DNA of 64,000 bases from positions 19,350 through 83,349 of the forward strand of contig JAIEOU010000003.1 of NCBI GenBank assembly GCA_019750255.1. Direction: 5' to 3'. Positions 8,298 through 60,523 of this stretch are shown here, piece after piece. A program made the translations under genes and the position numbers. The DNA comes from Patescibacteria group bacterium (GTDB lineage: Bacteria > Patescibacteriota > Minisyncoccia > Phycocordibacterales > UBA918). Each line of letters starts with the position of its first letter. The first letter of the stretch is position 1. The notes below the pieces were generated by a model. That model saw only the letters and a list, made by a program, of their open reading frames with translations, had not been told where the DNA came from and searched no databases.

Positions 8298-8305
8298 CCA
8301 GCGAC

Positions 8306-8413
8306 CCTAAAGCCCCATCTACTTTGTTGCCTACGTCGCTCGTGCCGCTCACCGTATCATCACAGGTACGGCTCGGACACTCGCTCGTCGGCGCCTCGTA
8401 GCTGGGGCTTTAT
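8306..8413 (+). promoter_or_regulatory. Structured RNA element immediately 3' of rpsO (long-range stem plus inner hairpins); candidate RNase III/terminator/leader structure
   Basis: taaagccccatctac (8306-8320) pairs with gtagctggggcttta (8399-8413) in 14 of 15 positions. There is an inner hairpin ccgtatcatcacaggtacgg. Confidence 0.3.
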
Positions 8414-8517
8414 CGTACGCTTGTTTCTGCGACCTGGAGCAACGGAAACATTTGGAGTATAGTAAGTACGCAGCGGAGATTTTAATAAACGAAGGACGTA
8501 ATTTACATAATAACTAT

Positions 8518-16151: not shown

Positions 16152-17180
16152 CTAGAAGGGGTTCTTCGCGCCGCGAACTTCAAAGTGCAGGTGACTACCG
16201 GTTGAACGGCCGGTGTTACCAACGTAGCCAATCACTTCACCAGCTGCTACGGCAGCACCAACTCCCACCGCATTACTGCTGTTATGAGCATACAATGTCT
16301 GGGTACCGTTACTATGGCGCACCACTATGTAATTACCATAACCACCATTCCAGCCTCCGGTCTTGGCAACAATGACTTCTCCGGCGGCGGCGGCGCGGAT
16401 TGGCGCTCCGACGGCGGCAGCGAGGTCGACCGCATTAAAGCCGTGTATACCCTGCGTACGAAGTGACCCCGGAAGAGGATGAATAAAGCCCGTAGCACCG
16501 CCGCCCGCGGCTGCGGTTTTGGTACCACTTGTGGTCGTACGCTTAGGAGCGGGGACTGTGCCGCCAGGAATAATGATGGTTATTCCGGATTGTAAATCAC
16601 TTTCTGAAAGTTGGTTATACGCAAGGATTTCTTCAGCCTCACCACCGTAGGTCTTGGCAATCGACGCAATAGTATCGCCCCTCTTAATCTTATATTGAAC
16701 ACCAGGAATCGGTAGGATAACCAGAGAGTCTCCAGGACGTATAGACTTGGCGCTCGTAAGATCGTTTGCCCACAAAATGGTATTGCTGGTAACGCCAAAC
16801 ATTTCGGCAATCATAGAAAGGGAATCGCCCTCGCGCACCGTATAAACACTAATCTCTCCGCTGGTAAGACTGAGACTTGATACATCGTCAGCGCCAATCG
16901 GACCAGATGATACGAGCGCACCTTCTCTCACGATAATTTCAGCTCCTCCGCGTGCCCCTTGCGGATTCGGGTTTCTTTGCGCGGAAAGAAGCGGGACGTC
17001 GATGGCGCTCGTAGTAGCGGCTTCTTGCGGGCGAGCCGGTAGCGTAGAGGCGCCCTCGCCGAACAGGGCAGTGAGCACACCGGCCTGTACCGTAAGCGGG
17101 AGAACGATACAGAACGCAAGTAGGGCAAACAGCACCCGACGAGGGTAATGAGCGAGTGCGTATATCATCTGACGTGCCAT
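16152..17180 (-). CDS. LysM-domain-containing M23 family metallopeptidase
   Basis: N-terminal TM helix, two LysM repeats (GDSLSMIAEMFGV..., GDTIASIAKTYGG...), and a C-terminal M23 domain with HxxxD and GSHLHFEV motifs. Confidence 0.85.
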   Translation of the reverse strand: MARQMIYALAHYPRRVLFALLAFCIVLPLTVQAGVLTALFGEGASTLPARPQEAATTSAIDVPLLSAQRNPNPQGARGGAEIIVREGALVSSGPIGADDVSSLSLTSGEISVYTVREGDSLSMIAEMFGVTSNTILWANDLTSAKSIRPGDSLVILPIPGVQYKIKRGDTIASIAKTYGGEAEEILAYNQLSESDLQSGITIIIPGGTVPAPKRTTTSGTKTAAAGGGATGFIHPLPGSLRTQGIHGFNAVDLAAAVGAPIRAAAAGEVIVAKTGGWNGGYGNYIVVRHSNGTQTLYAHNSSNAVGVGAAVAAGEVIGYVGNTGRSTGSHLHFEVRGAKNPF

Positions 17181-20284: not shown

Positions 20285-20397
20285 GCACCTCTTTATCCTC
20301 AGTTATTGCCCTATGTACACTAAGTTCTCCCCAGCTTAATCACATCTTGTTCGGTGTTCGTACACGGGAAGGGCTTCGACACTGCTATACTTTACGT

Positions 20398-21294
20398 ATG
20401 TTAGGTGGCATTAATCCCCGAGTGCTCGGATCGAGCTTTATTGGCTTAGCGCTCGTGTGTGGTGCTTGGGTTCTCAATTCCTTGCGGACGGCTCCCACCA
20501 CACCCCCCGAAGCCGCGGTGTACCTCGTTCAGGAAAATGCTCCAGTTCGGAACGCTCTTTCAACAGAAGACCAGAACACTGACGGCATCGAGGACTGGAA
20601 GGAGCCGTTCCTGACTGCTGCGCCAGTTATCTTAAACACCAGTTCCAGCTCAAATGAGCGAACAGGCACCCTCACCGAACAGGTAGGGATTAACCTCATG
20701 GAAAGCATGCTGATGGCGGAGAGCTTTGGTGCGGCCGGTGCGTCAAATGAGCAGCTCATCAAAAATTCGACCGAGCAGGCTTTTCTTGCAAATCGGGACC
20801 GCATCTATACCAGTAGCGACATCACGGTACTAACAAACCCTGAATTAGCGTCCATCCGCGACTACGCGAATGCGGTTGCTTTGATTCTCTCTACGAATGA
20901 TGTAAAGGGCTCAAAAAACGAGCTGCTTCTTTTTGACGAAGCGGTGCGCACTGGTAACCAGCAACTATTTGCTCAGATTACCCGCAAGGCAGACATGTAT
21001 AAGATCTATCGTGACGAGCTCCTCAAACTGCCCGTTCCACTAACCTTAACCCAGGAACACTTACGTCTTATTAATGTTTTTAATGTCATGGAGGCCAATA
21101 TCAGATCTATGACTGAACTTGACACCGACCCGCTAAAGACGCTCGTCCGACTGGAAAACTACCAAGATGACACCACCGAACTCGGTTTGGCATTGAATTA
21201 TTTTTATACTGGAATTTCTAAATTCCCTGACCTCTTCTCACCAAACGATCCAGCTCTTGCCTTTACCACCTTTGGTCAGTTGCAACAACAATAA
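20398..21294 (+). CDS. Hypothetical N-terminally membrane-anchored protein, first gene of the T4SS-like operon
   Basis: Internal Met followed by TM helix SSFIGLALVCGAWVL. An extended -10 tgctatact lies 6 nt upstream (leaderless). Confidence 0.4.
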   Translation: MLGGINPRVLGSSFIGLALVCGAWVLNSLRTAPTTPPEAAVYLVQENAPVRNALSTEDQNTDGIEDWKEPFLTAAPVILNTSSSSNERTGTLTEQVGINLMESMLMAESFGAAGASNEQLIKNSTEQAFLANRDRIYTSSDITVLTNPELASIRDYANAVALILSTNDVKGSKNELLLFDEAVRTGNQQLFAQITRKADMYKIYRDELLKLPVPLTLTQEHLRLINVFNVMEANIRSMTELDTDPLKTLVRLENYQDDTTELGLALNYFYTGISKFPDLFSPNDPALAFTTFGQLQQQ

Positions 21295-21304
21295 GTAATG
21301 TTCT

Positions 21305-23035
21305 ATGAAAACTCTTAACTTTCACTATTTCAATAAGCTCGTCTTTGGTTTTGTCTTCGTCCTGTTTGCGTTTACTACGGTATATATTCCACAGGACCAC
21401 ACACCGAGAGCGGAGGCACAAAACGTTGACCCCGCAGCGGTAGTCCAGCGAGAACGAGGGTGGTTCCAGTCACTCCTCGACTCTGTAAGCTTGACCGGAA
21501 CCTTTAAATCGGGCCTTGCTTCACTTGGTATTAACACCGCACAGTGGAGCGTGACGAGCATATTAAACGGTCTGGCCTGGGCCGCAGCCAAAAACATCCT
21601 TTCGATGATTCAGCGCGATATTGTGCGCTGGATTAATTCTGGTTTCCAAGGGAGTCCCGCGTTTATCCAAGATCTGGGAGGGTTTATCACCAACATAGCC
21701 GACGAAACGGCGGGGCAGTTGATTCAAGAAATCGGCGGGCCCTTATCGTTCGTATGTTCGCCGTTTCAGTTAGACGTACGAATTGCTGTTGCCTCCGCCT
21801 ATAACCGTACCCGCGATAAGAATGCTCGGCGATGTACCCTCACCGGCGCTCTGCAGAATATTCAAAACTTTATCGGCGGCGATATGAATCAAGGTGGCTG
21901 GGATTCATGGATTAGAATTGTGCACCAACCACAGTCTTACACTCCGCTCGGCTCTGCCCTCGATGCGAGCGCAGAGCTTGGTATCCGAATTCGTACCGCT
22001 CAAGGTCGCGAGGTAAACCTGCTTAACTGGGGCGGGGGATTCATGTCGAGCAAGGTTTGCGAAACAGTACCAGGCCCAAGTGGTGACGAGGAAAAATGCC
22101 GTGTTTCAACACCAGGTAATGTTATTGCCAACCAACTCAACCGGAGTTTAGGTCTTGGCGACGAATCGCTCATAGCCGCCGATCAGATTAACGAAATCAT
22201 TGGCGCTCTGATGCAACAGATGGTGAAGCAAGTACTAACCGGGGCAGGGGGGCTCCTCGGTGCGGGCGGTGGACAAGGCAGTAACTCCAAGTACACTGAT
22301 CCTAATTTCAACGTTGACCTCTTTACCGCAAAGACAGAGATTCAGGCAAATAGTAACGAGGGTCGGAAACTAATGATTGAAGCCTTTGCTGCTGAAAGTG
22401 AATTCTTAGATTTAGCGCAGAGCTTTATCGTTCGATACCAAAATGAGTACTCTGCTGATGGTGCGGTACAGGCAAGAGCAGCCGCCGCTTACAATGAGGC
22501 TCGTGAAGTCTTACCAAAGATACAAGACAATCTCACAAAGCTGCAAGCTATCCTTGCCAACTTTGACAGCGCGCCGAATTCTCAGGTGCAACAACAAGTT
22601 CTCCAGGACTTCACCGCCCAGTTTGCTTCGTTTAGCAACCAAATTCAGGTTGACGCAGCGCGCGAGCGGTGGATATCCGCCTTTATTGGCATGGGACCTC
22701 GACCAACGCCAGTAGCAGACAGCGTACTCGATAGTGCGGGTGAGGCGCTTTCAATCGAGGAGCTGTATCTGGATCTCGTTAATTCGGCTATTGACCAATA
22801 CGAAACACTGACAAACCCCAGTCCCGCAGAAAAGGTGGCGTACAATGAGGCTTTCGCTATCCTACCTGACATTCAACGTAACGTAATTGATCTACGAGAC
22901 ATCATTGACGCTCTTAAGGCCGGCGACAATGATGCCGAGGCGGACTTTACAGCCATTAAGCCTGACCTCCACACTGAAGTGGAGGTGACAAAAGCCCGCG
23001 TTGACTGGGAAGCGGCGCTCGGTACTTTACCGTAA
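21305..23035 (+). CDS. Hypothetical secreted protein (signal peptide; Gln/Ala-rich C-terminal half)
   Basis: Signal peptide MKTLNFHYFNKLVFGFVFVLFAFTTVYIP. 576 aa. Confidence 0.45.
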   Translation: MKTLNFHYFNKLVFGFVFVLFAFTTVYIPQDHTPRAEAQNVDPAAVVQRERGWFQSLLDSVSLTGTFKSGLASLGINTAQWSVTSILNGLAWAAAKNILSMIQRDIVRWINSGFQGSPAFIQDLGGFITNIADETAGQLIQEIGGPLSFVCSPFQLDVRIAVASAYNRTRDKNARRCTLTGALQNIQNFIGGDMNQGGWDSWIRIVHQPQSYTPLGSALDASAELGIRIRTAQGREVNLLNWGGGFMSSKVCETVPGPSGDEEKCRVSTPGNVIANQLNRSLGLGDESLIAADQINEIIGALMQQMVKQVLTGAGGLLGAGGGQGSNSKYTDPNFNVDLFTAKTEIQANSNEGRKLMIEAFAAESEFLDLAQSFIVRYQNEYSADGAVQARAAAAYNEAREVLPKIQDNLTKLQAILANFDSAPNSQVQQQVLQDFTAQFASFSNQIQVDAARERWISAFIGMGPRPTPVADSVLDSAGEALSIEELYLDLVNSAIDQYETLTNPSPAEKVAYNEAFAILPDIQRNVIDLRDIIDALKAGDNDAEADFTAIKPDLHTEVEVTKARVDWEAALGTLP

Positions 23036-23053
23036 CAGCCGCACATCTCTTAC

Positions 23054-25273
23054 ATGACACGCCTGCGCCAGCTCAATTTTCTCTACTGCCTATCACTCTG
23101 TCTTGTAGTGCTGGTTTTGGTACTGCCAACCCTCGTGTCGGCTCAGCAGGGTGGTGCTCCTGTTACCGCCTCAGAACAAAACACGCTTATGATGCGGGTG
23201 CTCTGGTGGATAGTCGCATCCGTCTTTGGCGGCCTTACCTGGGCTACTGGTTTACTCCTCGACTATAGTATTAGGGAGCTGGTAATTAATTTCGGTAGCC
23301 TCTACCAAACCTCAGGTTTAGGAGTAGCAGTAAACAACCTCTGGGGAGTGGTGCGCGATCTATTCAACCTCACGTTTATCTTCGGGCTCATTTATATTGG
23401 GTTCCGCATGATTATCAATAGCGATGACAGCGGGGCCAAGAAGGCGATCGTTAACCTGATTATCGCGGCACTGCTCGTTAACTTCAGTCTGTTTATCACG
23501 AAAACCGTCATCGATTTTTCCAATATTGCAGCGGTCCAGATCACCCAAGTAATATACCGGGGCGGAACCGCCACCAACCAATCCATCAGTGTAGCGTTTG
23601 GTGTCCAGATGGGACTCTCGAGTCTCTGGGGACAGACCCAAGAGCAAGCAAATACAGCACGTCTACAAACAGGGGGAGATCTGCCAGGACAAGGGGGGCT
23701 GCTCTATATATTTGGGGCGATGATCCTCTTTTTGATTGCAGCATTTTGTTTTGCGGCGGGAGCAATACTCCTCTTTGTCCGCTTTATTGCCCTGAATATC
23801 ATGATGATTCTTTCTCCCATCATGTTCCTTGGCCGAGTGTTTGAACCACTGCAGACCTATTCCTCTGCCTATTGGAAGAAGTTCCTGAGCTACTGCTTTT
23901 TTGCCCCAGCGTTTCTTTTAATGCTGTATTTCTCTCTCTATATCCTCGGTCAATTCACTGGCTCTATCCGCAATTCAAGTGGCCTCGCGGCCGAGCTTGG
24001 TCCAGGCGCCACTGGAGTTAACGCAATTGCAGCACTGCTGATGTCAGGCGGGTTCCTGATCGCCTCAGTGCTGGTCGCGCAAAAGATGAGTGGGGCAGCC
24101 GGAAGCATGACGGTTAAGGTGGGAAACAACCTGCGCGAGCGGGGACAGCGTATGATTGGTGCCTCAACGTTTGGAGCTGGCGCCTACGTCGGCCAAAGGA
24201 CTCTCGGTCGCGCCAGTGCCCGACTGTCTGACTCAGATACCATGAAGAACTGGGCATCGAGAAACCCAACAATGGGTAGAGCTGCGCTCAAGGTTACAAG
24301 TGCAGTAGGGGATGCATCATTTGATGGACGCGCCGCTCTCGCGGCAGCAGGTGTTAAAGGTCTTGGTAGTGCAACCAAGGGAGGCTATGAAACGCGCATG
24401 AAGGAAGCCGCTAAATCTGATAGGGAGTTTGCTGATACTCTCGGTGAGCAAAAGCTTGCTGACGCGGCGACACAAGCCGGAAGAACAGAACGAGCTTCAC
24501 AAATTGCTCCGGCAATAGCCACGATTAAGGCCGACTCAACAACCGAAGGTACCGCTGGCTACGAACTTAAGCAGACAGAGACTAAGCAGGCGAATGCACG
24601 AACAGTCACCTTAGCGGCTAATAATGAATTGTCTTCGATACAGCAAAACAGTAGAGCAGCCCAAGAGCCAGAACTCCAGAAGATTGCACTCTACCAAGAA
24701 CAGTTAGCCGCTGCGACAGACCCGACAGTGATAGCGAGCCTTAAGGATAAAATTAAAGCCAGCACCGACAAAGCTAAGGAGATTGAAGGAAATTTTGATA
24801 CTGCCACTAAAGCAGCGCAACAGAAAGTTACTGCTGCCCAGGCAGCCGAAAAAGGTATCGAGGCTCAGATTAAGTCAATCAATGACAAAATTGCCAAACA
24901 AGCGGAAGCGCGGTTTACCTATGCTCGCCAACTTACACTCATTGAGAGCCGAAAAAAGAGTCGCGATCGCTACACCGTAAAACTTCCTCGTGCCGTTAGT
25001 GGTGGAGCGGGCGCGGCCGGAGCGGCAGCCGCAGGGGCAGGTTTGTACGCAGCTGGGACTGCCGGGGCAGGGGCACTGGCTCTTGGTAGTGTCGTAAATT
25101 CGTATGGTGAAAGCTATGGCGCTCAAGTGGAAGCGTTAGAAAAAACCTACGGCAAAGACGGGACTAAGAAAATAAAAGCTTCGGAGCAAAAGAATAAAAT
25201 GAAAGAGCTCGGTGAAGTTTTGAAAGAAGAAGGGGTGATACCTAAAGAAAAGAAAGCTGATAAGGATGATTAA
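23054..25273 (+). CDS. VirB6/TrbL-like polytopic membrane protein with long C-terminal coiled-coil/Ala-rich tail
   Basis: Signal peptide followed by at least 6 TM helices, then a hydrophilic region of about 350 aa (KAKEIEGNFDTATKAAQQKV...). This architecture is typical of monoderm T4SS VirB6 homologs. Confidence 0.5.
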   Translation: MTRLRQLNFLYCLSLCLVVLVLVLPTLVSAQQGGAPVTASEQNTLMMRVLWWIVASVFGGLTWATGLLLDYSIRELVINFGSLYQTSGLGVAVNNLWGVVRDLFNLTFIFGLIYIGFRMIINSDDSGAKKAIVNLIIAALLVNFSLFITKTVIDFSNIAAVQITQVIYRGGTATNQSISVAFGVQMGLSSLWGQTQEQANTARLQTGGDLPGQGGLLYIFGAMILFLIAAFCFAAGAILLFVRFIALNIMMILSPIMFLGRVFEPLQTYSSAYWKKFLSYCFFAPAFLLMLYFSLYILGQFTGSIRNSSGLAAELGPGATGVNAIAALLMSGGFLIASVLVAQKMSGAAGSMTVKVGNNLRERGQRMIGASTFGAGAYVGQRTLGRASARLSDSDTMKNWASRNPTMGRAALKVTSAVGDASFDGRAALAAAGVKGLGSATKGGYETRMKEAAKSDREFADTLGEQKLADAATQAGRTERASQIAPAIATIKADSTTEGTAGYELKQTETKQANARTVTLAANNELSSIQQNSRAAQEPELQKIALYQEQLAAATDPTVIASLKDKIKASTDKAKEIEGNFDTATKAAQQKVTAAQAAEKGIEAQIKSINDKIAKQAEARFTYARQLTLIESRKKSRDRYTVKLPRAVSGGAGAAGAAAAGAGLYAAGTAGAGALALGSVVNSYGESYGAQVEALEKTYGKDGTKKIKASEQKNKMKELGEVLKEEGVIPKEKKADKDD

Positions 25274-25282
25274 TATTCACCT

Positions 25283-25816
25283 ATGAACCCAACTATTGCT
25301 GACGAACGCCTCTATCAAATCACCGACCCTGCCTATCGCGACTACATTTTAAGTGGCGACACGACTGACCTGGCTATTATTCTTGGCTCGACCCATAACT
25401 TAGACGAGCAGGCAGTGGGAGTACTTGAGAATGCGATTGATCTTTATCTTTTATGGCTCCTCGACGCCACCGGCCTGGCGACATTTATTAGTCGTCAATG
25501 CGACCTCTCATTAGATGATGCCGCGGTACTGGTTGCCGCTATAGACCTTGCCCTACCTGAAGACGTTCTCCAAGCACACGCACACCCAGAGGCGATGTTA
25601 CAGGCAGCTCCGTCACCAACTATTGCCACCGAAATTGCCGCCACCGAAGCCGCACTTGCGCACATCTCAACCGTGCGCACGATGGCGCGCGACATGGAGG
25701 ACCTAAAGAGCCAAGCACCGCAGGATAATGCTATCTATAAATCATCTCAAGATACCATTCGGCCCGACAGCACACAGGCCGACACCTCTCGGTGGGGTAG
25801 TGGTGCTCAAAAGTAA
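25283..25816 (+). CDS. Hypothetical acidic protein
   Basis: ORF in the operon with no recognisable motif. Confidence 0.35.
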   Translation: MNPTIADERLYQITDPAYRDYILSGDTTDLAIILGSTHNLDEQAVGVLENAIDLYLLWLLDATGLATFISRQCDLSLDDAAVLVAAIDLALPEDVLQAHAHPEAMLQAAPSPTIATEIAATEAALAHISTVRTMARDMEDLKSQAPQDNAIYKSSQDTIRPDSTQADTSRWGSGAQK

Positions 25817-25886
25817 CGAACACATGGGGATACCGGGAGCCGCTTCGTCATATAACGGAGCGGCTCCATGTATAATGAACTAATCT

Positions 25887-26309
25887 ATGCGTTTTGAGGT
25901 TCCTCAGTTTATCGAGATCGAAGACCGCATCATAGGTCCTTTTAGTTGGCGTCAGTTTTTGTATTTAGGCGGCGGTCTGGGCATGGGAGTAGTGCTCTTT
26001 TTAACGACGCCCTTTATCGTTTTTCTTCTCATCGGCCTTCCTCTCGCCGTTCTGGCGCTGGCACTGGCTTTTTATCCAATAAATAATCGACCTTTTTCTT
26101 TCTTCTTGGAGGCGATGTTTAACTACTTCTACAACCATCGTCTCTATCTGTGGCGCCGCAAAGAGCAGGTAATCTATAAAAAGGAACCGGCCCCAAGCAC
26201 CGTGGTCGATGATCTTACCACCACAAGTACACAGAAGCCCCGACATCAGTCCATTTCCTCCCTGTCTCGCCAACTCGAACTGCAAGCACTCCAAAAAAAA
26301 GATTTATAA
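25887..26309 (+). CDS. PrgI/VirB3-like small 2-TM membrane protein
   Basis: RQFLYLGGGLGMGVVLFLTTPFIVFLLIGLPLAVLALALAF gives two adjacent TM helices. It lies immediately upstream of VirB4, the conserved VirB3/PrgI position. Confidence 0.45.
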   Translation: MRFEVPQFIEIEDRIIGPFSWRQFLYLGGGLGMGVVLFLTTPFIVFLLIGLPLAVLALALAFYPINNRPFSFFLEAMFNYFYNHRLYLWRRKEQVIYKKEPAPSTVVDDLTTTSTQKPRHQSISSLSRQLELQALQKKDL

Positions 26310-26312
26310 CCT

Positions 26313-26948
26313 ATGCCCAAAGCCACTCCAGCCAGCCAAGAATTCGTTAGTATTCGCGACATCCGCGAGGGTGTTGTGATGTTAAAAGGGGGACAGACGT
26401 GCAGCGTTCTACTGGCTTCTTCCATAAATTTTGCCTTAAAGTCACAAGACGAACAGCGTGCAATCTTGCTCCAGTTCCAAAACTTTCTCAACACGTTAGA
26501 TTTTTCAATTCAAATCTATGTACAATCTCGCCGCATGAACATCGAGCCCTACCTAGAGCTCTTACGAACACGAGAGGGGGATCAGGACAATGACCTGATG
26601 CGCGTACAGCTACGGGAATACATGGAGTTCGTCCGTACTTTTACCACCGAAGTCGACGTCATGACCAAAAGCTTCTTTGTTATAGTGCCTTACACACCAG
26701 CGCCACTTAATCTTTCAAAAAACCTGGGGTCATTCTTGGCGCAAGGCAAGTCAGCCCCCGCAACGACAGAGACGCGCTTCGAAGAACAGCGTGTTGCGCT
26801 TGAGCAGCGCATTGCGATTGTGAAGCAAGGACTCGATCGTATCGGCGTTCGCACGATTGCCCTTGGCAATGACGAGCTCGTTGAATTTTATTACCACATA
26901 TACAACCCCGGTGATCCTACCTCAAGCGCGCCCTCAGCCGACGTCTAA
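26313..26948 (+). CDS. VirB4/TrbE/CagE-family ATPase, N-terminal domain (separated from the ATPase domain by an in-frame TAA)
   Basis: IRDIREGVVMLKGGQTCSVLLASSINFALKSQDEQRAILLQFQNFLNTLDFSIQIYVQS matches the CagE_TrbE_VirB N-terminal pattern. It is in the same frame as 26958..28754. Confidence 0.55.
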   Translation: MPKATPASQEFVSIRDIREGVVMLKGGQTCSVLLASSINFALKSQDEQRAILLQFQNFLNTLDFSIQIYVQSRRMNIEPYLELLRTREGDQDNDLMRVQLREYMEFVRTFTTEVDVMTKSFFVIVPYTPAPLNLSKNLGSFLAQGKSAPATTETRFEEQRVALEQRIAIVKQGLDRIGVRTIALGNDELVEFYYHIYNPGDPTSSAPSADV

Positions 26949-26957
26949 TTAATAATT

Positions 26958-28754
26958 ATGGGTATTTTTGATATTTTAAAACCGTCACAGAAGAACGATA
27001 CCGTCACCGATTTGGCAGACCACCTCCTCACCATCACTGATGTGATTGCACCATCGGCGGTACAAATTGGACCTCGTAGCATCAGTATTGGTGGGGTAAA
27101 CGCGCGGGTTTTTTACGCCGTTGCCTACCCACGCTATCTGACCGACGGCTGGCTCCAGCCGGTGACAAACCTCGAGCGAGAACTCGATATATCTATTTTC
27201 ATTCACCCGGTCAACACGGCTGATATGTTGAAGAAGTTCCAGAAGAAAGTAGCCGAGGTACAGAGCCAGATTCACATGAAAGCCGACAAGGGTGAGGTGC
27301 GCGATCCTCAACTCGAAGCCGCCTACCAAAACCTTGAAGATTTGCGCGACAAGCTCCAGCAATCAGAAGAGCGCCTCTTTGATGTAGGCTTCTATATCAG
27401 TGTCTACGGCCAAGATGAAGCCGCGCTCAACAAGGCTGAAAATGAAATTAAAGGCCTTCTTGATTCTCGCCTTATATACATAAAGCCGGGTTACTTCCAG
27501 CAAGAGCCGGGAATGAAGAGTATTGTGCCGGTAGCACAAGACGAACTACTCGTTCATAGTAAATTTAACTCTTCACCGCTCTCTAGTTTTTTCCCGTTCA
27601 CGTCTTTCGATTTAACATCCGATAACGGCATCCTCTATGGCATCAATCGCCACAATTCCTCCTTGGTACTGTTTGACCGCTTTAGCCTTACAAACTACAA
27701 CTCGGTCACCTTTGCCACCTCTGGAGCAGGGAAGTCCTATGCACTGAAGCTGGAAATCTTACGATCGCTGATGTTCGGAACCGAAGTAATTGTGCTCGAC
27801 CCAGAACGCGAGTACGAATACCTGGCCGAAGCCACTGGTGGGCGCTTTTTCAACATCTCCCTTTCGTCTGACCACCACATCAATCCCTTTGACCTACCCG
27901 CCCCGCAAGAAGACGAAAACCCCCAAGACATCTTACGCAGTCACGTGGTTGAACTCATTGGTCTCTTTCGGTTGATGTTGGGCGGTCTCGCTCCTGAAGA
28001 AGAAACCATTATTGACCTCGCCATCCATGAAACCTACGCGCTTAAAGATATCTCTGGTGACACTGATTTTTCAAACCAAGAACCCCCACTTCTCTCTGAC
28101 TTTGAAATGGTACTTGCTGGCATGGACGGCAGCGCTTCCTTGATTACCCGCCTACAGAAGTACACATCGGGTACTTGGTCAGGCTTCATGAACAAAGCTA
28201 CCAATGTTGATATCAACCAGAAGTTTGTGGTGTTTTCACTACGTGATATGGAGGATGAACTCAAAACCATCGCGATGTACATTGTGACCAACTTCATTTG
28301 GAGTGCCGTTCGTCGCCGCCTGACCAAGCGCCTCCTTGTTATCGACGAGGCTTGGTGGATGATGAAGTCAGAAGATACGGCTTCATTCCTCTTTAGTCTA
28401 GCCAAACGAGGTCGTAAGTACTATTTGGGAATCGCGACAATTACCCAGGATGTCGATGACTTTCTTCGCTCTCCGTACGGAGTACCGATGATTACGAACT
28501 CTTCTATTCAGCTGCTCATGAAGCAATCACCAACAGCCATTGACAACATTCAGCGCACCTTCAATCTTACTGATGAAGAAAAGTTCTTACTTTTGGAGTC
28601 GGGGGTAGGGGAGGGAATATTCTTTGCCGGACTCAAGCACGTAGCCATAAAAATTATCGCCTCCTACACAGAAGATCAAATCATCACGTCTGACCCATCA
28701 CAATTACTACAAATTAAGCGTGCCCGTGCCGAGCTTCGTGCTGCTCGACCGTAG
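26958..28754 (+). CDS. VirB4/TrbE/CagE-family T4SS ATPase, C-terminal ATPase domain
   Basis: Walker A TFATSGAGKSYALK and Walker B LLVIDEAWWMM. C-terminal ITQDVDDF and other VirB4 motifs. 598 aa. Confidence 0.8.
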   Translation: MGIFDILKPSQKNDTVTDLADHLLTITDVIAPSAVQIGPRSISIGGVNARVFYAVAYPRYLTDGWLQPVTNLERELDISIFIHPVNTADMLKKFQKKVAEVQSQIHMKADKGEVRDPQLEAAYQNLEDLRDKLQQSEERLFDVGFYISVYGQDEAALNKAENEIKGLLDSRLIYIKPGYFQQEPGMKSIVPVAQDELLVHSKFNSSPLSSFFPFTSFDLTSDNGILYGINRHNSSLVLFDRFSLTNYNSVTFATSGAGKSYALKLEILRSLMFGTEVIVLDPEREYEYLAEATGGRFFNISLSSDHHINPFDLPAPQEDENPQDILRSHVVELIGLFRLMLGGLAPEEETIIDLAIHETYALKDISGDTDFSNQEPPLLSDFEMVLAGMDGSASLITRLQKYTSGTWSGFMNKATNVDINQKFVVFSLRDMEDELKTIAMYIVTNFIWSAVRRRLTKRLLVIDEAWWMMKSEDTASFLFSLAKRGRKYYLGIATITQDVDDFLRSPYGVPMITNSSIQLLMKQSPTAIDNIQRTFNLTDEEKFLLLESGVGEGIFFAGLKHVAIKIIASYTEDQIITSDPSQLLQIKRARAELRAARP

Positions 28755-28768
28755 TACAATAAGCGAAC

Positions 28769-29518
28769 ATGGCTGATCGCCGCCTGCAAGCCTCCCTAGA
28801 CCGCGCCCGCACTGGTCGACAGACCACAGACGAGCTTTTTAATGATGAATATGCTCGATCTGGTCTACAACCAACCAATGTGGTCGTCGATCGTAGATCG
28901 CCCCGCGCTCCTAATCGAACAGAGTCAGAAAAGTTAGACGAGGAGAAGGCTCTACAGGAGATGGCGGCGTTCGAACGAGCAGAGAAGACTCAACAATTGC
29001 GCCAACGATTTACTCAGCAGCCAACACAAACCAACGTCGGCCAGGCAGAGGAGGCAATCGACACCGCCGTAGCGTTACGTAGCCGAAGTGTTTTTGTATG
29101 GATGATGGGTTGGCACTGGTGGCAGTGGACCACCCTTCAATTATCAATCGGACTACTTTCGATTATGTTTCTCGGATTAGCGTACGGTCTTGAGAGTAGC
29201 TGGCTCGGAAGGGTCGTGGGTCGAGTGGCTGGTGCAGTTAATGCTGTCACTTCGTTTGTCGGGTTTGATTTTTCCCTGTTTAGCCCCGAAAATATGTTCT
29301 GGGTGCTCTATATATTCCTTCTGGGCATGATGTGGCTCAGTCTGTTCGCTACAGTAGTTACTTATATGTGTGTCCAGCATCGAGCCTTATCGGGGAAGAG
29401 AACTGGTCTAAAGTATGGCACGGTAGCCCTCGCGCTTATCGGGTACGCAGTACCAATTGCTAACTTATTTCCCTGGGTTGTGTTCTATATTTTGGTCATG
29501 ACTCGCTACCCACGGTAG
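28769..29518 (+). CDS. Hypothetical membrane protein (basic cytoplasmic N-terminus, about 4 TM)
   Basis: Hydrophobic helices from about aa 110 onward. Lies in the operon. Confidence 0.4.
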   Translation: MADRRLQASLDRARTGRQTTDELFNDEYARSGLQPTNVVVDRRSPRAPNRTESEKLDEEKALQEMAAFERAEKTQQLRQRFTQQPTQTNVGQAEEAIDTAVALRSRSVFVWMMGWHWWQWTTLQLSIGLLSIMFLGLAYGLESSWLGRVVGRVAGAVNAVTSFVGFDFSLFSPENMFWVLYIFLLGMMWLSLFATVVTYMCVQHRALSGKRTGLKYGTVALALIGYAVPIANLFPWVVFYILVMTRYPR

Positions 29519-29583
29519 CTGCCTCTGGTATTCGCAGCCCTCTGCCGTGTTCAAAAATAACATTTCTGAGCGGTCGTACTGGT

Positions 29584-30552
29584 ATGATTGATGGTATGAA
29601 GATTGTTGCTTTGGTTTTATTTTTCTTAAGTTTTTTCACCGCCCCGGTGGCATATGCTCAAGTTTCTGCAACCCCTTTCCTTAACCAGCTACAAATTGTT
29701 ACCGACCCACTATATCCCTCTCCACAGAGTGAGATAGGGGTAAATCTCAATGACTACGGATTAGCTGGCGCCGGCGGGACTATTGAATGGGTGGTCGACG
29801 GGGTTCGTCGTAGTGATTTGCACAATAAAAGATCTTTTACGATAACAACTGGCGCTACAGGCGTGCCGATGGTACTTGAAGCCATGATTACCCCCGCAAA
29901 CGGACCGCGCATGACCGCTCGCAACACTATTTCTCCGACCTATCTTGATCTAATTATCGAAGCCCAGACTCGTGTGCCGGGTTTTTATCTCGGTCGGGCT
30001 CTCCCTAGTATCGGTAGCGCCGTTAATGTGACCGCCCTCATAAATGGTACAGCTGTTTCACCGCGCGATTTACTATTTAGATGGCAAATGAACGAAACCG
30101 CCCTCCTCGGTGGACCTGTACAAGGACAGAACCAAGTTACCTTTACCATGCCACAAGGGGGAGCTACTCTAGGAGTCGTAGTAGAGAGGGTAGGTGGTGG
30201 TGTGATTGCGAGCAAAAATATATTTCTCCAGAATGCAGAACAGACGGTTCGTTTTTATGAGGTAAATAGTCTCTACGGGATGGCTAAGCGGTCGGCAGAG
30301 CGCCTATCTCTCATTGGTAACAGCACTACCGTAAGGGCGGAGCCGTTTCATCTCGATATCCGTACCTACAACAACCCCGACATCGCCACCTGGTCAAGCT
30401 CCGCAATTACTCTTTCTCAAGGCACAAACCCATATGAAGCGACCATCGTCCGGCAAGCTGGTTTAACTGGAGTTGGGGCGGTCGGTTTCCATGTACGCAA
30501 CGAAAATCAAATCCTACAAGGTAGCCAAGCAAGCCTCCAGGTGAGCTACTAA
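29584..30552 (+). CDS. Hypothetical secreted protein
   Basis: Signal peptide MIDGMKIVALVLFFLSFFTAPVAYAQ. Confidence 0.4.
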   Translation: MIDGMKIVALVLFFLSFFTAPVAYAQVSATPFLNQLQIVTDPLYPSPQSEIGVNLNDYGLAGAGGTIEWVVDGVRRSDLHNKRSFTITTGATGVPMVLEAMITPANGPRMTARNTISPTYLDLIIEAQTRVPGFYLGRALPSIGSAVNVTALINGTAVSPRDLLFRWQMNETALLGGPVQGQNQVTFTMPQGGATLGVVVERVGGGVIASKNIFLQNAEQTVRFYEVNSLYGMAKRSAERLSLIGNSTTVRAEPFHLDIRTYNNPDIATWSSSAITLSQGTNPYEATIVRQAGLTGVGAVGFHVRNENQILQGSQASLQVSY

Positions 30553-30556
30553 ACTT

Positions 30557-31753
30557 ATGAAAAAAACTTTTATTATCGCTGGCGCTGTCATTCTCGTACT
30601 CATGCTCGCGGGACTATGGATCTACATGATGTTTTTTGGTACACCACGGACGGTTGAGGAAGTTCTTCCCGACTTCGCGCTCTGGGGGGAGGATGGGATG
30701 CCGGTACAAATACCGGTGATAGCCCCCACCACTACCGCTCCTCTACCGATGGTAAATGTCAATGAAAAAGCTTTACGCCAACTGACGACACGGCCAGTGG
30801 CCGGCTACCGCGAAGTACTGAAGAGCGCTTCGTCCACTCCCGAGCTCTACTACGCTGAGGTGGGTACCGGTCACATCTACAGCATCAACCTCGAGACCGG
30901 TGCCGAGGTGCGCGTATCTGGCACCACCATTCCTGAGGCGGTACGCGCGGATTTTAGCAGTGACGGACGACATGTTGTGATTGCTTCTGGGTTTAGCCAG
31001 GGACACACCGCCACTATCGGGGAATTAGACGCAAGCACGGGAGCGCTTACTGAAGTACCGTTTACCGACACCTTAGGGGACTTCAGGATTACTGAGGGCG
31101 GGGACTTACTGTACACTCACCCCTCTAACACCCTGACAGGTAAAACATTCTCTCTTTCTAACCGAACCACCCGTACACTATTTACTCTACCGTTCCGTGA
31201 CGCCACCATATCTTGGGGCGAACGCGTTACCGACACCCATTTTGTTTACCCTCGTCCCACGATGGAACTAGAAGGGTTTGGCTATGCCATAAACAATGGC
31301 GGACTGACACGCCTGCCATTGTCTGGTTTTGGTTTTTCACTGTTCGGCAATGAGAGCTTGGTTGGTGCGAACTTTCTTGATAAGAACGATTTCGTATCTG
31401 TGTTCTATAACCGCTCGACCCGGAACCTTATTTCATCACCGGTCCGTCTCCTGCCAGAAAAGTGCACATTTGGAACTAAAAATAAAACCATAGTATGGTG
31501 TGGTGCTAGTTTACAAGCCACCGGCTTCGGCTTCCCTGACACCTGGTATACCGGGGAAGTGGGCTTCAGTGATGACATTTATGAAATTTCGCTTACATCG
31601 ACATCTAGTTCGCTGACACTAATTACAGATACTTTAATTGAAACCGGACGTGAAGTAGATATTGTTGACCTTCGCGTAAATCCGACTGAAACGCAACTGT
31701 ACTTTATTAACAAAAACGATTCATCACTCTGGGCCTATGATCTCTCGCGCTAG
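30557..31753 (+). CDS. Hypothetical bitopic membrane protein with beta-rich extracytoplasmic domain
   Basis: N-terminal TM helix IIAGAVILVLMLAGLWIYMMFF, followed by repeated beta-strand-like segments. Confidence 0.4.
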   Translation: MKKTFIIAGAVILVLMLAGLWIYMMFFGTPRTVEEVLPDFALWGEDGMPVQIPVIAPTTTAPLPMVNVNEKALRQLTTRPVAGYREVLKSASSTPELYYAEVGTGHIYSINLETGAEVRVSGTTIPEAVRADFSSDGRHVVIASGFSQGHTATIGELDASTGALTEVPFTDTLGDFRITEGGDLLYTHPSNTLTGKTFSLSNRTTRTLFTLPFRDATISWGERVTDTHFVYPRPTMELEGFGYAINNGGLTRLPLSGFGFSLFGNESLVGANFLDKNDFVSVFYNRSTRNLISSPVRLLPEKCTFGTKNKTIVWCGASLQATGFGFPDTWYTGEVGFSDDIYEISLTSTSSSLTLITDTLIETGREVDIVDLRVNPTETQLYFINKNDSSLWAYDLSR

Positions 31754-32486
31754 TTTCTTCTTAATTCCTTCTGCGCTTTTTATTGTCTTGTTGGTGACTC
31801 CTTTTTTGGGACTTGCTCAGTCCTTGACGTATCAGCCACTAGTGGGGATTCCCGGCATTAACAACACGGCCACTGACTTTAATCTTTATATAAATCAACT
31901 CTACTTCCTATCTATCAGCCTAGCCGCGCTTTTAGCGGTAATTAAAATTATTATTGGCGGAGTAAAGTGGATGCTATCCGACGGCCCTTCGGGTAAGTCT
32001 GGCGCAAAGGATGATATTCGTAGCGCTCTCCTTGGATTACTCCTCATTGTGTCGGCTGTTCTTATCCTTGGAACGATTAACCCCCAACTGCGTGACCTCA
32101 ACGTACTTGGTGGGGCACCAGCACTAAATCCGCTACCAAGCGCTGGGTCGCGATCAGTAGCCAATCCTACAAATCAGGCAGTTACTACTGAGCAGCAGAA
32201 TCTTTCTCAGAGTCCTGATAATCAGCAAGCGGTGGAGCAGGCCCTTGGTGTTAATCGCAATCAAGTTCAAACCGGAACCGATCGGGCTGGCTCTAACACT
32301 TTTTCTTACATAGTCGCAGATGCACCTCGAGAGGTAAAGAATGGTTTCATAAATGCCTGCATGAATGTGACGCAGGGCGGTGTAGGTACGACCAACACCA
32401 TCCGCACCGAATCGTTTAACGGGTTACAAATAATGTCTTGCTATCGCCAGGGCCCAAACAATACCCAATATCGAATCCAACTATAG
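31737..32486 (+). CDS. Pilin-like (VirB2/TrbC-like) protein with Gln-rich C-terminal extension
   Basis: Signal peptide, then two hydrophobic helices separated by a short loop (LYFLSISLAALLAVIKIIIGGVKW...ALLGLLLIVSAVLILGTI). Overlaps the upstream gene by 17 nt. Confidence 0.35.
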   Translation: MISRASFFLIPSALFIVLLVTPFLGLAQSLTYQPLVGIPGINNTATDFNLYINQLYFLSISLAALLAVIKIIIGGVKWMLSDGPSGKSGAKDDIRSALLGLLLIVSAVLILGTINPQLRDLNVLGGAPALNPLPSAGSRSVANPTNQAVTTEQQNLSQSPDNQQAVEQALGVNRNQVQTGTDRAGSNTFSYIVADAPREVKNGFINACMNVTQGGVGTTNTIRTESFNGLQIMSCYRQGPNNTQYRIQL

Positions 32487-32541
32487 CGTCTGCCAGCAGG
32501 TCTCTTCTACTCCTCTTTTTTCCTTTCTCAAACTTAAAGTG

Positions 32542-57082: not shown

Positions 57083-57172
57083 TGGCGGAGGATGTGGGAT
57101 TCGAACCCACGAGACCTTTTACAGTCTGGCGGTTTAGTAAACCGCTGCTTTCAACCACTCAGCCAATCCTCC
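57083..57172 (-). tRNA. tRNA-Ser-type (long variable arm, encoded CCA) with apparent anticodon ACU
   Basis: Manual fold: acceptor GGAGGAT/ATCCTCC, anticodon stem GCGGT/ACCGC, loop TTACTAA, 18-nt variable arm, T-arm GTGGGTTCGAATCCCAC, and 3' GCCA. Confidence 0.6.
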
Positions 57173-60518: not shown

Positions 60519-60523
60519 TTACT

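Follow-up and report, generated by a model that had tools for sequence, protein, structure and literature searches.

What does a type IV secretion system (T4SS)-like gene block do for a bacterium when no coupling protein, relaxase or VirB11 is encoded around it? The question is raised by a compact set of genes on contig JAIEOU010000003.1 of a Patescibacteria group bacterium from the class Paceibacteria, analysed here within a window of 64 kb, the whole stretch of DNA under study. The original prediction, made from the sequence alone, described the block as a monoderm-type T4SS-like machine and judged it unlikely to be a conjugation system; both statements agree with published work and with the analyses reported here, in which the VirB4, PrgI, VirB6 and VirB2-like pilin families were confirmed.

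Genetic organization of the locus

The block is a run of packed genes on the forward strand (20398-32486, +) and comprises 11 genes, g1 to g11, both in the ORF list and in an independent gene call, rather than the 12 first counted. A 51-aa ORF at 25728-25883 is devoid of any homologue. The tight same-strand packing described earlier was borne out, with intergenic gaps of 3-70 nt (10, 18, 9, 70, 3, 9, 14, 65 and 4 nt) and one 17-nt overlap. The features are as follows.

20383..20391 (+): TGCTATACT, an extended -10 promoter box separated by 6 nt from the ATG of g1, read from the sequence
20398..21294 (+): g1, bitopic membrane protein, 298 aa, N-terminal TM helix
21305..23035 (+): g2, secreted 576-aa protein, signal peptide
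23054..25273 (+): g3, extended VirB6/TrbL-like polytopic membrane protein, 739 aa (PF04610)
25283..25816 (+): g4, cytoplasmic 177-aa protein without TM helix
25871..25876 (+): TATAAT box, candidate internal promoter, 10 nt upstream of the g5 ATG
25887..26309 (+): g5, PrgI/VirB3-like small membrane protein, 140 aa (PF12666)
26313..26948 (+): g6, TrsD-like cytoplasmic protein, 211 aa (NCBIfam VirB4 N-terminal/TrsD models)
26958..28754 (+): g7, VirB4 ATPase, 598 aa (NF045971, P-loop_TraG, 4AG5)
28769..29518 (+): g8, 249-aa membrane protein, 3-4 TM helices by hydropathy
29584..30552 (+): g9, secreted beta-rich protein, 322 aa, signal peptide
30557..31753 (+): g10, N-terminally anchored 398-aa protein, TM helix at residues 4-22
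31337..32541 (+): tract of about 1.2 kb that varies between strains; it includes the final third of g10 and the pilin gene, and varies most in the pilin tail (from 32147)
31737..32486 (+): g11, putative VirB2-like pilin, signal peptide and two hydrophobic helices (PF18895, NF045849)

The start of g1 appears leaderless or near-leaderless, with TGCTATACT as its candidate promoter. This extended -10 box had been predicted at the same place and proved to be conserved: of 50 orthologous loci, 36 have a TGnTAnnnT box in the 45 nt ahead of g1, where the chance expectation, a rough estimate and not a calculated value, is about 3 %. The motif TAYAMT was found upstream of g1 in 44 of these 50 loci and upstream of most internal genes in 2-25 %. 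Shine-Dalgarno motifs are almost absent from the genome; a -10 box often stands 6-10 nt ahead of the ATG of a first gene. Two internal genes also stand out, g5 with a TAYAMT box in 44 of 73 orthologous loci (60 %) and g9 with a conserved -10 box in 40 % of loci. Since both are preceded by such boxes, the block probably comprises more than one transcription unit, and its transcription as a single unit seems unlikely.

VirB4 engine and pilin

Profile searches for the VirB4, TrbL, PrgI and pilin families returned g7, g3 and g5 as matches and g11 as a marginal one. The g7 product aligned with the CD1110-family VirB4 model NF045971 (6e-108, 362 bits, cutoff 325) over model positions 167-733 of 752, with the solved VirB4 C-terminal domain (PDB 4AG5, 7e-44), and with the Pfam families P-loop_TraG (2e-25) and AAA_10. 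Its Walker A GAGKS and Walker B DEAW motifs, already noted when a VirB4/TrbE ATPase was proposed, are present. The nearest VirB4 homologues (82-100 % identity) belong to records named Patescibacteria, Paceibacteria, Kaiserbacteria and Nomurabacteria.

Relative to the full-length VirB4 model, g7 is missing ~165 positions at its N-terminal end. The g6 product matched positions 128-244 of NF045975 (2.6e-8), positions 11-101 of NF045971 and the TrsD model NF041427, with PF26593 (TraC-like) as its precomputed Pfam match, and the VirB4 N-terminal region and TrsD were matched by 31/31 members of the g6 family. Together, g6 and g7 span positions 11-101 and 167-733 of the CD1110 VirB4 model; on these profile matches, g6 is read as the detached N-terminal domain of VirB4, encoded as a separate ORF. 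Its position also corrects the earlier picture of a PrgI/VirB3-like protein directly upstream of VirB4: the assignment of g5 stands (PF12666, 2.4e-9, 38 bits, cutoff 27; family found in 76 loci), but the 211-aa g6 lies in between. Likewise, g3 is a VirB6/TrbL-like protein as proposed (PF04610 TrbL, 1.4e-6, 28.6 bits, gathering cutoff 25.9), with 6-7 TM segments, but the 350-aa coiled-coil tail ascribed to it is a hydrophilic C-terminal tail of ~395 aa in which heptad periodicity is confined to residues 561-650.

The VirB2/TrbC-like two-helix pilin of the original prediction corresponds to g11, which scored just below the gathering score of PF18895 T4SS_pilin (7.4e-6, 26.4 bits versus 26.6) and matched NF045849, the Mbov_0395 pilin-like model, at 2.7e-5. 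The latter model was matched by 24 of 31 g11 orthologues (best 4.9e-10). These similarities point to a VirB2-like pilin resembling the pilin-like proteins of Mycoplasma ICEs. The C-terminal tail of g11 is variable, with 135 aa here and 13-284 aa among orthologues.

Accessory proteins

The six other products were examined by profile searches and, for some of them, structure prediction. Five signal-peptide or bitopic proteins had been described as belonging to no recognisable family; g9 and g10 could be linked to Ig-like and TolB-like folds, respectively. The g1 product carries a DxDxDGxxDW calcium-loop-like motif, and its extracellular domain is predicted to be an all-alpha 4-helix bundle, a fold on which its candidacy as VirB8 was rejected. 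In g2, a conserved, Cys-containing N-terminal domain with a WINSGFxGxPxF motif (low AF2 pLDDT) precedes two three-helix bundles (pLDDT >95 for residues 350-576); C151 and C177 are invariant and C265 nearly invariant in the alignment. A Foldseek search of g2 against PDB gave no match. With 5,828 50 %-cluster representatives at E<=1e-3, some containing F5/8 type C domains, g2 belongs to a large orphan family.

In the cytoplasmic g4, a disordered linker joins a helical N-terminal domain of ~95 aa to a short motif conserved at the C-terminus (VRTMxxD...); the protein had no match in Pfam or PDB, and an iterative HMM search found its family in 68 loci. Neither Pfam nor NCBIfam models matched g8, a fast-evolving protein whose N-terminal ~110 aa are charged and cytoplasmic. 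Its family was recovered from only 27 loci; most loci do have a gene in this place, between VirB4 and g9. The g9 protein, present in 78 loci, probably consists of tandem Ig-like domains, as suggested by a profile match to the Ig-like Hoc protein (1.6e-3) and by matches of its orthologues to BiPBP_C (8/30) and a PKD-like domain (1). Profile matches to about a dozen TolB propeller chains (E ~5e-5 to 1e-4), together with weak PD40 and DPPIV_N matches among orthologues, identify g10 as a putative membrane-anchored extracellular TolB-like beta-propeller. Any role proposed for g1, g2, g4, g8, g9 and g10 draws only on predicted folds or topology and on synteny.

Chromosomal position and variation

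The locus adjoins the replication origin, between ksgA and yidC-rnpA-rpmH-dnaA. A synteny comparison with 80 species-level relatives, whose VirB4 proteins are 67-85 % identical, revealed the same order, uvrD-ksgA-(g1 to g11)-yidC-rnpA-rpmH-dnaA(-dnaN), in all 80 loci as far as each contig reaches. The G+C content of the operon (0.49-0.52) matches that of its flanks. This fixed gene order indicates a vertically inherited core locus and not a mobile element.

The components of the locus differ in their pace of change. Compared with strain L088, identity was 91.6 % for VirB4, 80.8 % for g6 and 76.1 % for PrgI, and 93.7, 80.6 and 79.1 % for the housekeeping proteins DnaA, YidC and UvrD. It was far lower for g1 (41.5 %), g2 (45.2 %), VirB6 (39.7 %), g4 (38.1 %), g8 (31.3 %), g9 (42.5 %) and g10 (41.5 %), and this ranking recurs across the 80 loci. 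VirB4, TrsD and PrgI thus change at the slow pace of housekeeping genes such as DnaA, and the envelope parts evolve far faster; surface exposure does not explain the rapid change of the cytoplasmic g4 and the polytopic g8.

Variation at a finer scale was seen against a single Logan contig (L083), which may be a chimaera of co-occurring strains. From uvrD through g9, nucleotide identity was 99.7-100 %, and it was 99.86 % in yidC; in between, g10 fell to 91.1 %, its differences clustering at nt 780-1080 (residues ~262-360, the C-terminal third), and the first 410 nt of the pilin gene showed few changes (97.8 %). The segment 32147-32541 did not align, the pilin tail having been replaced outright. 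Contigs from four other samples stop at the start of g10, and another stops within the pilin gene. A diversity-generating retroelement was rejected as the source of this tract, because the window contains no second copy and the substitutions show a generic spectrum.

Comparison with known systems

The locus shares with the Patescibacteria-clade T4SS an MPF-FATA-type VirB4 with an adjacent TrsD homologue, PrgI/VirB3, VirB6 and a VirB2-like pilin, the lack of a relaxase or T4CP near virB4, and a chromosomal position beside ksgA, rnpA, rpmH, dnaA and dnaN. Nearly all ultra-small Patescibacteria have such a chromosomal cluster beside the replication origin. A survey of 3,035 Patescibacteria genomes reported TrsD, PrgI, VirB6, VirB2-like pilins and the missing relaxase, with relaxases missing from most clusters of the clade and, in Paceibacteria, a neighbourhood of ksgA, rnpA and dnaA (Quinonero-Coronel et al. 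2025, PMC12102498). A Saccharibacteria homologue was found by Tn-seq to be essential for epibiotic growth (Wang et al. 2023, PMC10633639), and the Patescibacteria T4SS has been reviewed (PMC12857230). The view of a largely undescribed system thus finds no support: the system, the missing relaxase and the dnaA-side position are already published, and the present finding is a correct rediscovery. The Saccharibacteria cluster (Southlakia epibionticum SEML1_0006-0019) nevertheless differs in gene order and accessory set. It has an array of six short pilins, versus one long variable-tailed pilin here; SEML1_0012 is NTF2-like in Wang's table, whereas the search of this operon gave no NTF2/VirB8-like protein. 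No lysozyme or peptidase comes after virB4 here; the operon has g1, g2, g9 and g10 instead.

Among mobile elements, the trs region of Staphylococcus pGO1/pSK41 (MPF-FATA subclass with TrsD and TrsE) likewise has a small separate TrsD directly upstream of VirB4, the two adjoining a VirB3-like TM protein. In contrast to this locus, pGO1 is a DNA-transferring plasmid that encodes a relaxase and a T4CP but no VirB2-like pilin, and its subclass has no recognisable VirB6 (PMC12102498). The Mycoplasma ICE (Mbov_0395 pilin-like, Mbov_0396 TM protein, Mbov_0397 VirB4) also combines VirB4 with a small two-helix pilin-like protein in wall-less or monoderm hosts; in addition to the pilin model shared by the 24 orthologues, NF045975 was matched by g6 and g7. 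Mycoplasma ICEs are mobile and carry TraG/T4CP and a DDE recombinase. Scores below the equivalog cutoffs (pilin 23.7 versus 40 bits; VirB4 254 versus 590) indicate a remote relationship. The Gram-positive pCF10 Prg/Pcf system and C. difficile CTn have in common with this locus a CD1110-type VirB4 (above cutoff), a member of the PrgI family and a VirB6-like protein of extended length, but possess a PrgK/CwlT-type hydrolase, VirB8-like PrgL/TcpC, a PcfC T4CP, a relaxase and surface adhesins, none of which were found in this operon. Helicobacter pylori ComB has VirB2-, VirB3-, VirB4- and VirB6-like parts and functions without coupling protein, VirB11 or relaxase. This part set resembles the present one, but ComB is of the diderm MPF-T type, with VirB7-10 as its outer-membrane core, and only a generic VirB4-family sequence relation was seen.

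Function of the apparatus

The locus is a vertically inherited, chromosomal, MPF-FATA-derived Patescibacteria T4SS in the arrangement typical of Paceibacteria, and it probably makes a pilus or conduit, driven by VirB4, through which the cell contacts its host. VirB4 (g7), its detached TrsD-like N-domain (g6), PrgI/VirB3 (g5) and the extended VirB6 (g3) constitute the inner-membrane engine, accompanied by the VirB2-like pilin (g11) and by six lineage-specific proteins (g1, g2, g4, g8, g9 and g10), mainly envelope proteins. A VirB2/VirB3/VirB4/VirB6 set with no nearby T4CP, relaxase or VirB11 probably represents the pilus-biogenesis half of a T4SS. In Gram-negative T4SSs, the pilin is dislocated by VirB4, and VirB3, VirB4 and VirB6 form the base of pilus assembly. 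Here, a pilin inserted by Sec/YidC would be pulled from the membrane by VirB4 and polymerised on a VirB6/VirB3 platform, the predicted product being a conjugative-type pilus or tube through the monoderm wall. In such a structure, g9, g10, g1 and g2 may be wall-spanning or tip parts. The surface-exposed parts that vary between strains, namely the tail of the pilin and the outward side of the g10 propeller, are proposed to touch the host cell that carries the bacterium. In Saccharibacteria, the homologous cluster, pilins included, is essential for epibiotic growth independently of ComEC (PMC10633639, PMC12857230), and in co-cultures of Patescibacteria the genes for T4SS pilins rank with the most strongly expressed ones of unknown function (PMC10936435). 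Conjugative self-transfer by the operon is unlikely.

The same parts could serve as a translocator of effectors or other proteins onto or into the host, with a distal VirD4-like T4CP or none, the pilin being a conduit and not an adhesive fibre; we consider this unlikely. Bordetella Ptl and Brucella VirB are T4SSs that work without a coupling protein. The operon has a complete membrane engine, the cytoplasmic g4 with its conserved C-terminal peptide motif could be an adaptor, and an export function was raised for the published systems (PMC10633639, PMC12857230). VirD4-like matches occur in 2,918 of 3,035 Patescibacteria genomes, mostly distant from virB4 (PMC12102498). In the 64-kb window, however, to which the absence of a T4CP applies, a Pfam scan of about 50 ORFs detected no T4CP, relaxase or VirB11, as originally stated, and no integrase; the only P-loop ORFs are ComM, UvrD, TsaE, ClpB, VirB4, DnaA, PilB and RuvB, with no second VirB4/VirD4/FtsK-type ATPase. 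A PF00437-family ATPase (43790-45481, -) was rejected as VirB11, being a PilB-type protein of 563 aa with an MshEN domain, from type IV pili. VirB8-like and VirB1-like subunits were not found in the operon. Protein translocation is further weakened by the lack of a candidate effector in or beside the operon, whose neighbours are housekeeping genes, by the sufficiency of Sec for export from a monoderm cell, and by Southlakia, where the T4CP homologue is dispensable and the T4SS genes essential, as PMC12102498 relates citing Wang 2023.

Import of DNA or nucleic acids in the manner of Helicobacter ComB or archaeal Ced, as a source of nucleotides and genes for a nucleotide-auxotrophic organism, is more doubtful still. 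The part set equals ComB minus its outer-membrane parts, g7 has a weak partial CedB match (2.3e-8), ComM is encoded 4.3 kb upstream of position 20398, where the operon begins, and ABY1-class T4SS loci adjoin comF, recG and radA (PMC12102498). Yet the CedB match is limited to the P-loop region (33 bits, cutoff 700), the DNA-metabolism genes on either side belong to the usual housekeeping set near the origin and are conserved in synteny, and a hypervariable pilin tail and propeller suit cell recognition better than DNA binding. Moreover, competence in Southlakia requires ComEC and type IV pili, and deletion of comEC leaves viability intact, whereas the T4SS is essential (PMC10633639, PMC12857230). 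Finally, an ordinary conjugative element (ICE or integrated plasmid), with relaxase and T4CP beyond the window, is largely refuted and highly improbable. The best models do come from Firmicutes/Mollicutes elements (CD1110-type VirB4, TrsD, PrgI, Mbov_0395 pilin-like), and some Patescibacteria have relaxases (109 in 103 genomes; PMC12102498), but the fixed oriC-side position and gene order in relatives and the flank-like composition argue against mobility, as does the lack of an integrase, flanking repeats or a nearby tRNA insertion site in the window. The conservation of VirB4 comes close to that of DnaA, the housekeeping protein with the highest identity in the comparison, as would suit a core role in the cell, and exchange of VirB4 between classes is rare (PMC12102498).

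Significance

With the system itself known, the undescribed remainder narrows to the identity of the accessory subunits g1, g2, g4, g8, g9 and g10. No description of g1, g2, g9 or g10 was found in the publications consulted, and PMC12102498 contains no mention of TolB. New here are the predicted TolB-like propeller of g10, the probable Ig-like domains of g9, the predicted 4-helix bundle of g1, the likeness of the pilin to Mycoplasma ICE pilin-like proteins, the contrast in evolutionary rates and the strain-variable tract. The outward-facing parts of this apparatus, especially the putative g10 propeller and the pilin tail, differ sharply between near-identical strains.

Gene content and transcriptional layout

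The T4SS-like genes, numbered g1 to g11 along the + strand, are accompanied by a promoter-like box and by one rejected gene candidate:

20398-32486 (+), operon of 11 ORFs
20383-20391, extended -10 box TGCTATACT, 6 nt 5' of the g1 ATG
25728-25883, 51-aa ORF considered as a twelfth gene, with no homologue in 80 related loci

Genes called independently on a near-identical public contig likewise number 11, one fewer than originally predicted. Successive genes are separated by gaps of 10, 18, 9, 70, 3, 9, 14, 65 and 4 nt, with one 17-nt overlap.

The extended -10 box proposed before the ATG at 20398 was found in place, and the g1 promoter was judged by comparative conservation across orthologous loci. 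Such a box occurs upstream of g1 in 36 of 50 loci, and a TAYAMT box in 44 of 50, against a chance level for a -10 box of roughly 3 % (estimated, not computed). In the same analysis, most internal genes have an upstream box in 2-25 % of loci. The g1 promoter, lacking a -35 match, was missed by a simple sigma-70 scan. Conserved boxes before g5 (60 % of loci) and g9 (40 %) fall in the two longest gaps, of 70 and 65 nt, a pattern that makes three transcription units likely. Shine-Dalgarno motifs are near absent genome-wide, as seen in the regions upstream of start codons in the window, and a TAnnnT box, often TGnTAnnnT, ends 6-10 nt before the ATG of many first-in-operon genes, suggesting that leaderless transcripts may be the norm in this genome. 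Examples of the box precede dksA, tyrS, mur, the DUF6671 gene and an ORF at 49331.

The VirB4-centred engine

The predicted VirB4/TrbE ATPase was borne out by several profile searches. The 598-aa g7 product scored 362 bits against the CD1110-type VirB4 model of NCBIfam (NF045971, cutoff 325), matched P-loop_TraG (2e-25) and AAA_10 in Pfam, and aligned with 4AG5, the solved VirB4 C-terminal domain, at 7e-44. Walker A (GAGKS) and Walker B (DEAW) are both present, so that g7 is a VirB4-family ATPase with intact nucleotide-binding motifs, the hallmark by which a T4SS was recognised. The best curated model is of the MPF-FATA type, which would fit a place in the Patescibacteria clade. Among 8,000 VirB4 homologues, the best 120 are 82-100 % identical and, wherever named, are assigned to Patescibacteria, Paceibacteria, Kaiserbacteria or Nomurabacteria; a protein of the NCBI 'Patescibacteria group bacterium' is 100 % identical, and those named Kaiserbacteria, Nomurabacteria or Paceibacteria are 82-85 % identical.

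The 140-aa g5 product matches PrgI (Pfam). It had been placed directly upstream of VirB4, but the 211-aa g6 sits between the two. This protein matches the VirB4 N-terminal region (positions 128-244 of NF045975 and 11-101 of NF045971) as well as TrsD, both matches being recovered in all 31 orthologues tested, and g7 begins at position 167 of the CD1110 model. VirB4 is therefore encoded in two pieces, a TrsD-like N-domain and an ATPase, as in the pGO1 subclass. The kinship of g6 with the VirB4 N-terminus was visible only with NCBIfam models; hhalign of g6 with g7 and searches of g6 against PDB sequences gave no signal.

The 739-aa g3 product matches TrbL/VirB6 above the Pfam gathering score, as predicted. 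Its supposed 350-aa coiled-coil tail did not hold, since heptad periodicity is confined to residues 561-650 of a hydrophilic tail of ~395 residues. The TrsD homologue (g6), PrgI (g5), VirB6 (g3) and the pilin (g11) all lie within 5 kb of virB4, the arrangement that marks the Patescibacteria clade.

Pilin and accessory subunits

With a signal peptide (residues 1-27), two hydrophobic helices (55-73 and 96-114) and a 135-aa tail, the 249-aa g11 product has the signal peptide and two-helix topology of VirB2/TrbC pilins, and it scores 26.4 bits against T4SS_pilin PF18895 (gathering score 26.6). Tail length varies from 13 to 284 aa among orthologues. The Mycoplasma ICE pilin-like family NF045849 was matched by 24 of 31 pilin orthologues (best E 4.9e-10), g11 of the window itself staying below the 40-bit cutoff; g11 thus resembles Mbov_0395-like proteins of Mycoplasma ICEs. 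VirB2-like pilins have been suggested to be borrowed from diderm systems (PMC12102498); the present similarity suggests that they may not be foreign to monoderm MPF-FATA systems.

The remaining products are mostly envelope proteins. The g10 product combines an N-terminal anchor with a TolB-like β-propeller, its profile matching about a dozen TolB chains (E ~5e-5 to 1e-4). A signal peptide and probable Ig-like β-sandwiches make up g9 (profile match to Hoc, 1.6e-3; BiPBP_C matched by 8 of 30 orthologues). The secreted g2 product has a conserved, Cys-containing N-domain poorly modelled by AF2, followed by two confident three-helix bundles; its family comprises 5,828 50 %-cluster representatives, and some relatives have F5/8 type C domains at their C-terminal end. 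For g2, Foldseek returned no PDB hit at E<=1e-3 and profile searches of PDB gave coiled-coil noise only. The cytoplasmic g4 product consists of a helical N-domain, a disordered linker and a short C-terminal motif, and occurs in 68 loci; the polytopic, very divergent g8 was detected in 27. Profiles of g1 and g4 matched nothing in PDB, and all-against-all hhalign of the operon families revealed no paralogues above 5 % probability.

No VirB8-like protein, bitopic with an NTF2-like domain (PrgL/TraM/TcpC), was found among g1, g9 and g10: an all-alpha 4-helix bundle is predicted for g1, the bitopic candidate, g10 is TolB-like and g9 Ig-like. Pfam and NCBIfam likewise detected no VirB1-like hydrolase domain in g1-g11. 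Two further ORFs of the window touch on these subunits:

16152-17180 (-), LysM-LysM-Peptidase_M23 gene, 3.2 kb upstream of the operon, its position kept in relatives
12455-14164, Pro-rich 569-aa ORF with a single TM segment, upstream of dksA and comM

In Paceibacteria specifically, virB4 is associated with VirB1-like, M23 and LysM proteins (PMC12102498), and the LysM-LysM-M23 peptidase may stand in for the cell-wall hydrolase. The 569-aa ORF carries at its N-terminus a motif, P-x-(V/L)-RT(M/F)xxD, also present near the C-terminus of g4 (25283-25816), which may be a common docking peptide.

Genomic context and conservation

The operon is flanked by uvrD-ksgA on one side and yidC-rnpA-rpmH-dnaA-dnaN on the other. 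Cumulative GC skew is lowest at 34-36 kb, and the DnaA-box-like sequence TTATACACA occurs twice, at 34008 and 34019; together these place the putative oriC about 2 kb from the operon end. The synteny comparison called for by the original prediction was run with one genome per species and comprised 80 loci with VirB4 67-85 % identical. The order uvrD-ksgA-[g1..g11]-yidC-rnpA-dnaA-dnaN was found in all of them, each as far as its contig reaches, with the pilin gene located between g9 and g10 in more distant loci. Operon G+C matches that of the flanks. This chromosomal position near dnaA, dnaN, rnpA, rpmH and ksgA, with neither relaxase nor T4CP gene next to virB4, is the pattern reported for Paceibacteria (PMC12102498). 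The operon is a vertically inherited core locus and not an island.

Left of the dnaA region (1-32486), almost every gene, those of the operon included, is encoded on the + strand and faces the putative origin; transcription of the operon would therefore run head-on against replication, an orientation kept in the 80 loci. Many TPA assemblies named 'uncultured Candidatus Saccharibacteria bacterium' (L002, L009, L013 and others) hold a Paceibacteria-type locus with VirB4 67-84 % identical, and these names look like placeholder misassignments.

Evolutionary rates and strain variability

Comparison with strain L088 clearly separated two rate groups: the engine is highly conserved, and the envelope set evolves fast.

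Amino-acid identity to strain L088
Engine: VirB4 91.6 %; g6 80.8 %; PrgI 76.1 %
Housekeeping: DnaA 93.7 %; YidC 80.6 %; UvrD 79.1 %
Envelope/accessory: g1 41.5 %; g2 45.2 %; VirB6 39.7 %; g4 38.1 %; g8 31.3 %; g9 42.5 %; g10 41.5 %

A finer picture came from L083, a near-identical strain represented by a Logan contig from one short-read assembly, possibly a chimaera. From uvrD through g9, nucleotide identity with the window is 99.7-100 %. It falls to 91 % in g10, with changes concentrated in nt 780-1080 (amino acids ~262-360), and is 97.8 % in the 5' part of the pilin gene; unrelated sequence replaces the pilin tail (window 32147-32541), and yidC is again 99.86 % identical. The variable tract thus covers about 1.2 kb:

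31337-32541, 3' third of g10 and the pilin gene

In four other samples the contigs break off where g10 begins, and one NCBI contig stops within the pilin gene, as would be expected from population-level polymorphism. A diversity-generating retroelement was considered and rejected: the window holds no template repeat, no reverse transcriptase was matched in the Pfam scans, and substitutions follow a generic spectrum that peaks at third codon positions, with indels also present. The g10/pilin variation is allele replacement, and the tract likely marks a host-contact surface.

Other features of the window

A complete MmeI-type restriction-modification enzyme and an ORF-poor gap were found upstream of the operon, and two tRNA genes downstream:

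3833-6562 (+), MmeI-type enzyme of 909 aa with all five MmeI domains
7420-8450, ~1 kb with no ORF of at least 100 aa, between a voltage-gated-type ion channel gene (-) and an NYN-domain gene (+); no Rfam match even at E<=1
57083-57172 (-), Ser-type tRNA with a long variable arm and the anticodon loop TTACTAA, giving anticodon ACU where GCU is usual
58300-58372, nearby tRNA-Arg, with GCG rather than ACG

To our knowledge, bacteria do not usually have a tRNA-Ser with A34.

Missing transfer genes and possible functions

Pfam scanning of ~50 ORFs across the whole 64-kb window detected no coupling protein, relaxase (MOB) domain, integrase or VirB11. A Walker-A census of ORFs of at least 150 aa returned only ComM, UvrD, TsaE, ClpB, VirB4, DnaA, PilB and RuvB; within the window, no T4CP family (VirD4/TraG/TcpA) was matched in Pfam and no P-loop ORF was left unassigned. 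The predicted lack of VirD4/TraG, relaxase and VirB11 in these 64 kb was therefore upheld. One PF00437 ATPase was examined as a possible VirB11 and proved to belong to type IV pili, of which a second gene group was present:

43790-45481 (-), 563-aa ATPase with an MshEN domain, PilB
59367-62120 (+), type IV pilus genes: PilM (59367-60518), then three small ORFs with no Pfam match, which could be PilN, PilO or PilP analogues

Given the PilB-like ATPase (MshEN and T2SSE) and PilM, the organism has both T4P and T4SS.

Ordinary conjugation, which the original prediction had already thought improbable, is very unlikely, since neither relaxase nor T4CP was found in the window, no integrase accompanies the genes, and their position is fixed in the 80 relatives. 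Protein translocation may take place through a distal T4CP; T4CP-like genes lie mostly far from virB4 in the Patescibacteria clade (PMC12102498). DNA import in the manner of ComB/Ced may also be envisaged by analogy of composition, together with a weak P-loop match of g7 to CedB (33 bits, for a 700-bit cutoff).

Beyond the parts list, topology, synteny and rate pattern, which were directly observed, VirB2, VirB3, VirB4 and VirB6 without T4CP, VirB11 and relaxase would correspond to the half of a T4SS that builds the pilus. VirB4 together with TrsD would dock on PrgI and VirB6, pull pilin out of the membrane and assemble it into a polymer. Wall-spanning or tip parts would come from g9, g10, g1 and g2, and contact with the host would be made by the variable tail of the pilin and the variable face of the propeller. 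Pilus biogenesis is suggested here from general knowledge of T4SSs and from the observed strain variability. A more specific proposal, possible and on balance rather doubtful, is that the Paceibacteria T4SS builds a VirB2-type filament, that the swappable C-terminal surface domain of the pilin and the variable face of the membrane-anchored, TolB-like g10 form a recombining host-specificity cassette setting the docking host, and that a branch of monoderm MPF-FATA systems had VirB2-like pilins ancestrally and did not borrow them from diderms. Such a cassette would be much like phage receptor-binding proteins.

Relation to known systems and significance

The composition of this system, originally held to be largely undescribed, has been published. 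Its VirB4 clade, nested in MPF-FATA, occurs in 2,407 of 3,035 Patescibacteria assemblies and is associated with TrsD, PrgI/VirB3, VirB6 and VirB2-like pilins and with almost no relaxases (PMC12102498). In Southlakia, a cluster including pilins and lacking coupling and relaxase proteins is essential for epibiotic growth by Tn-seq (PMC10633639), an essentiality that a review stresses to be independent of ComEC (PMC12857230). In Patescibacteria co-cultures, genes for T4SS pilins rank with the most strongly expressed of those without known function (PMC10936435). The feature is real, correctly recognised and already known; both the first observation and its main interpretation are therefore a rediscovery of earlier reports (PMC12102498, PMC10633639), so that no new kind of system is described.

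Added here are folds assigned to three accessory subunits, the clear rate difference between engine and envelope genes, the resemblance of the pilin to those of Mycoplasma ICEs, and a cassette of g10 propeller and pilin tail that varies between strains, all of which are leads for experiments. We know of no T4SS other than that of Patescibacteria that is essential for its own carrier. The system therefore matters for understanding the life of a large share of uncultivated bacteria on other cells.
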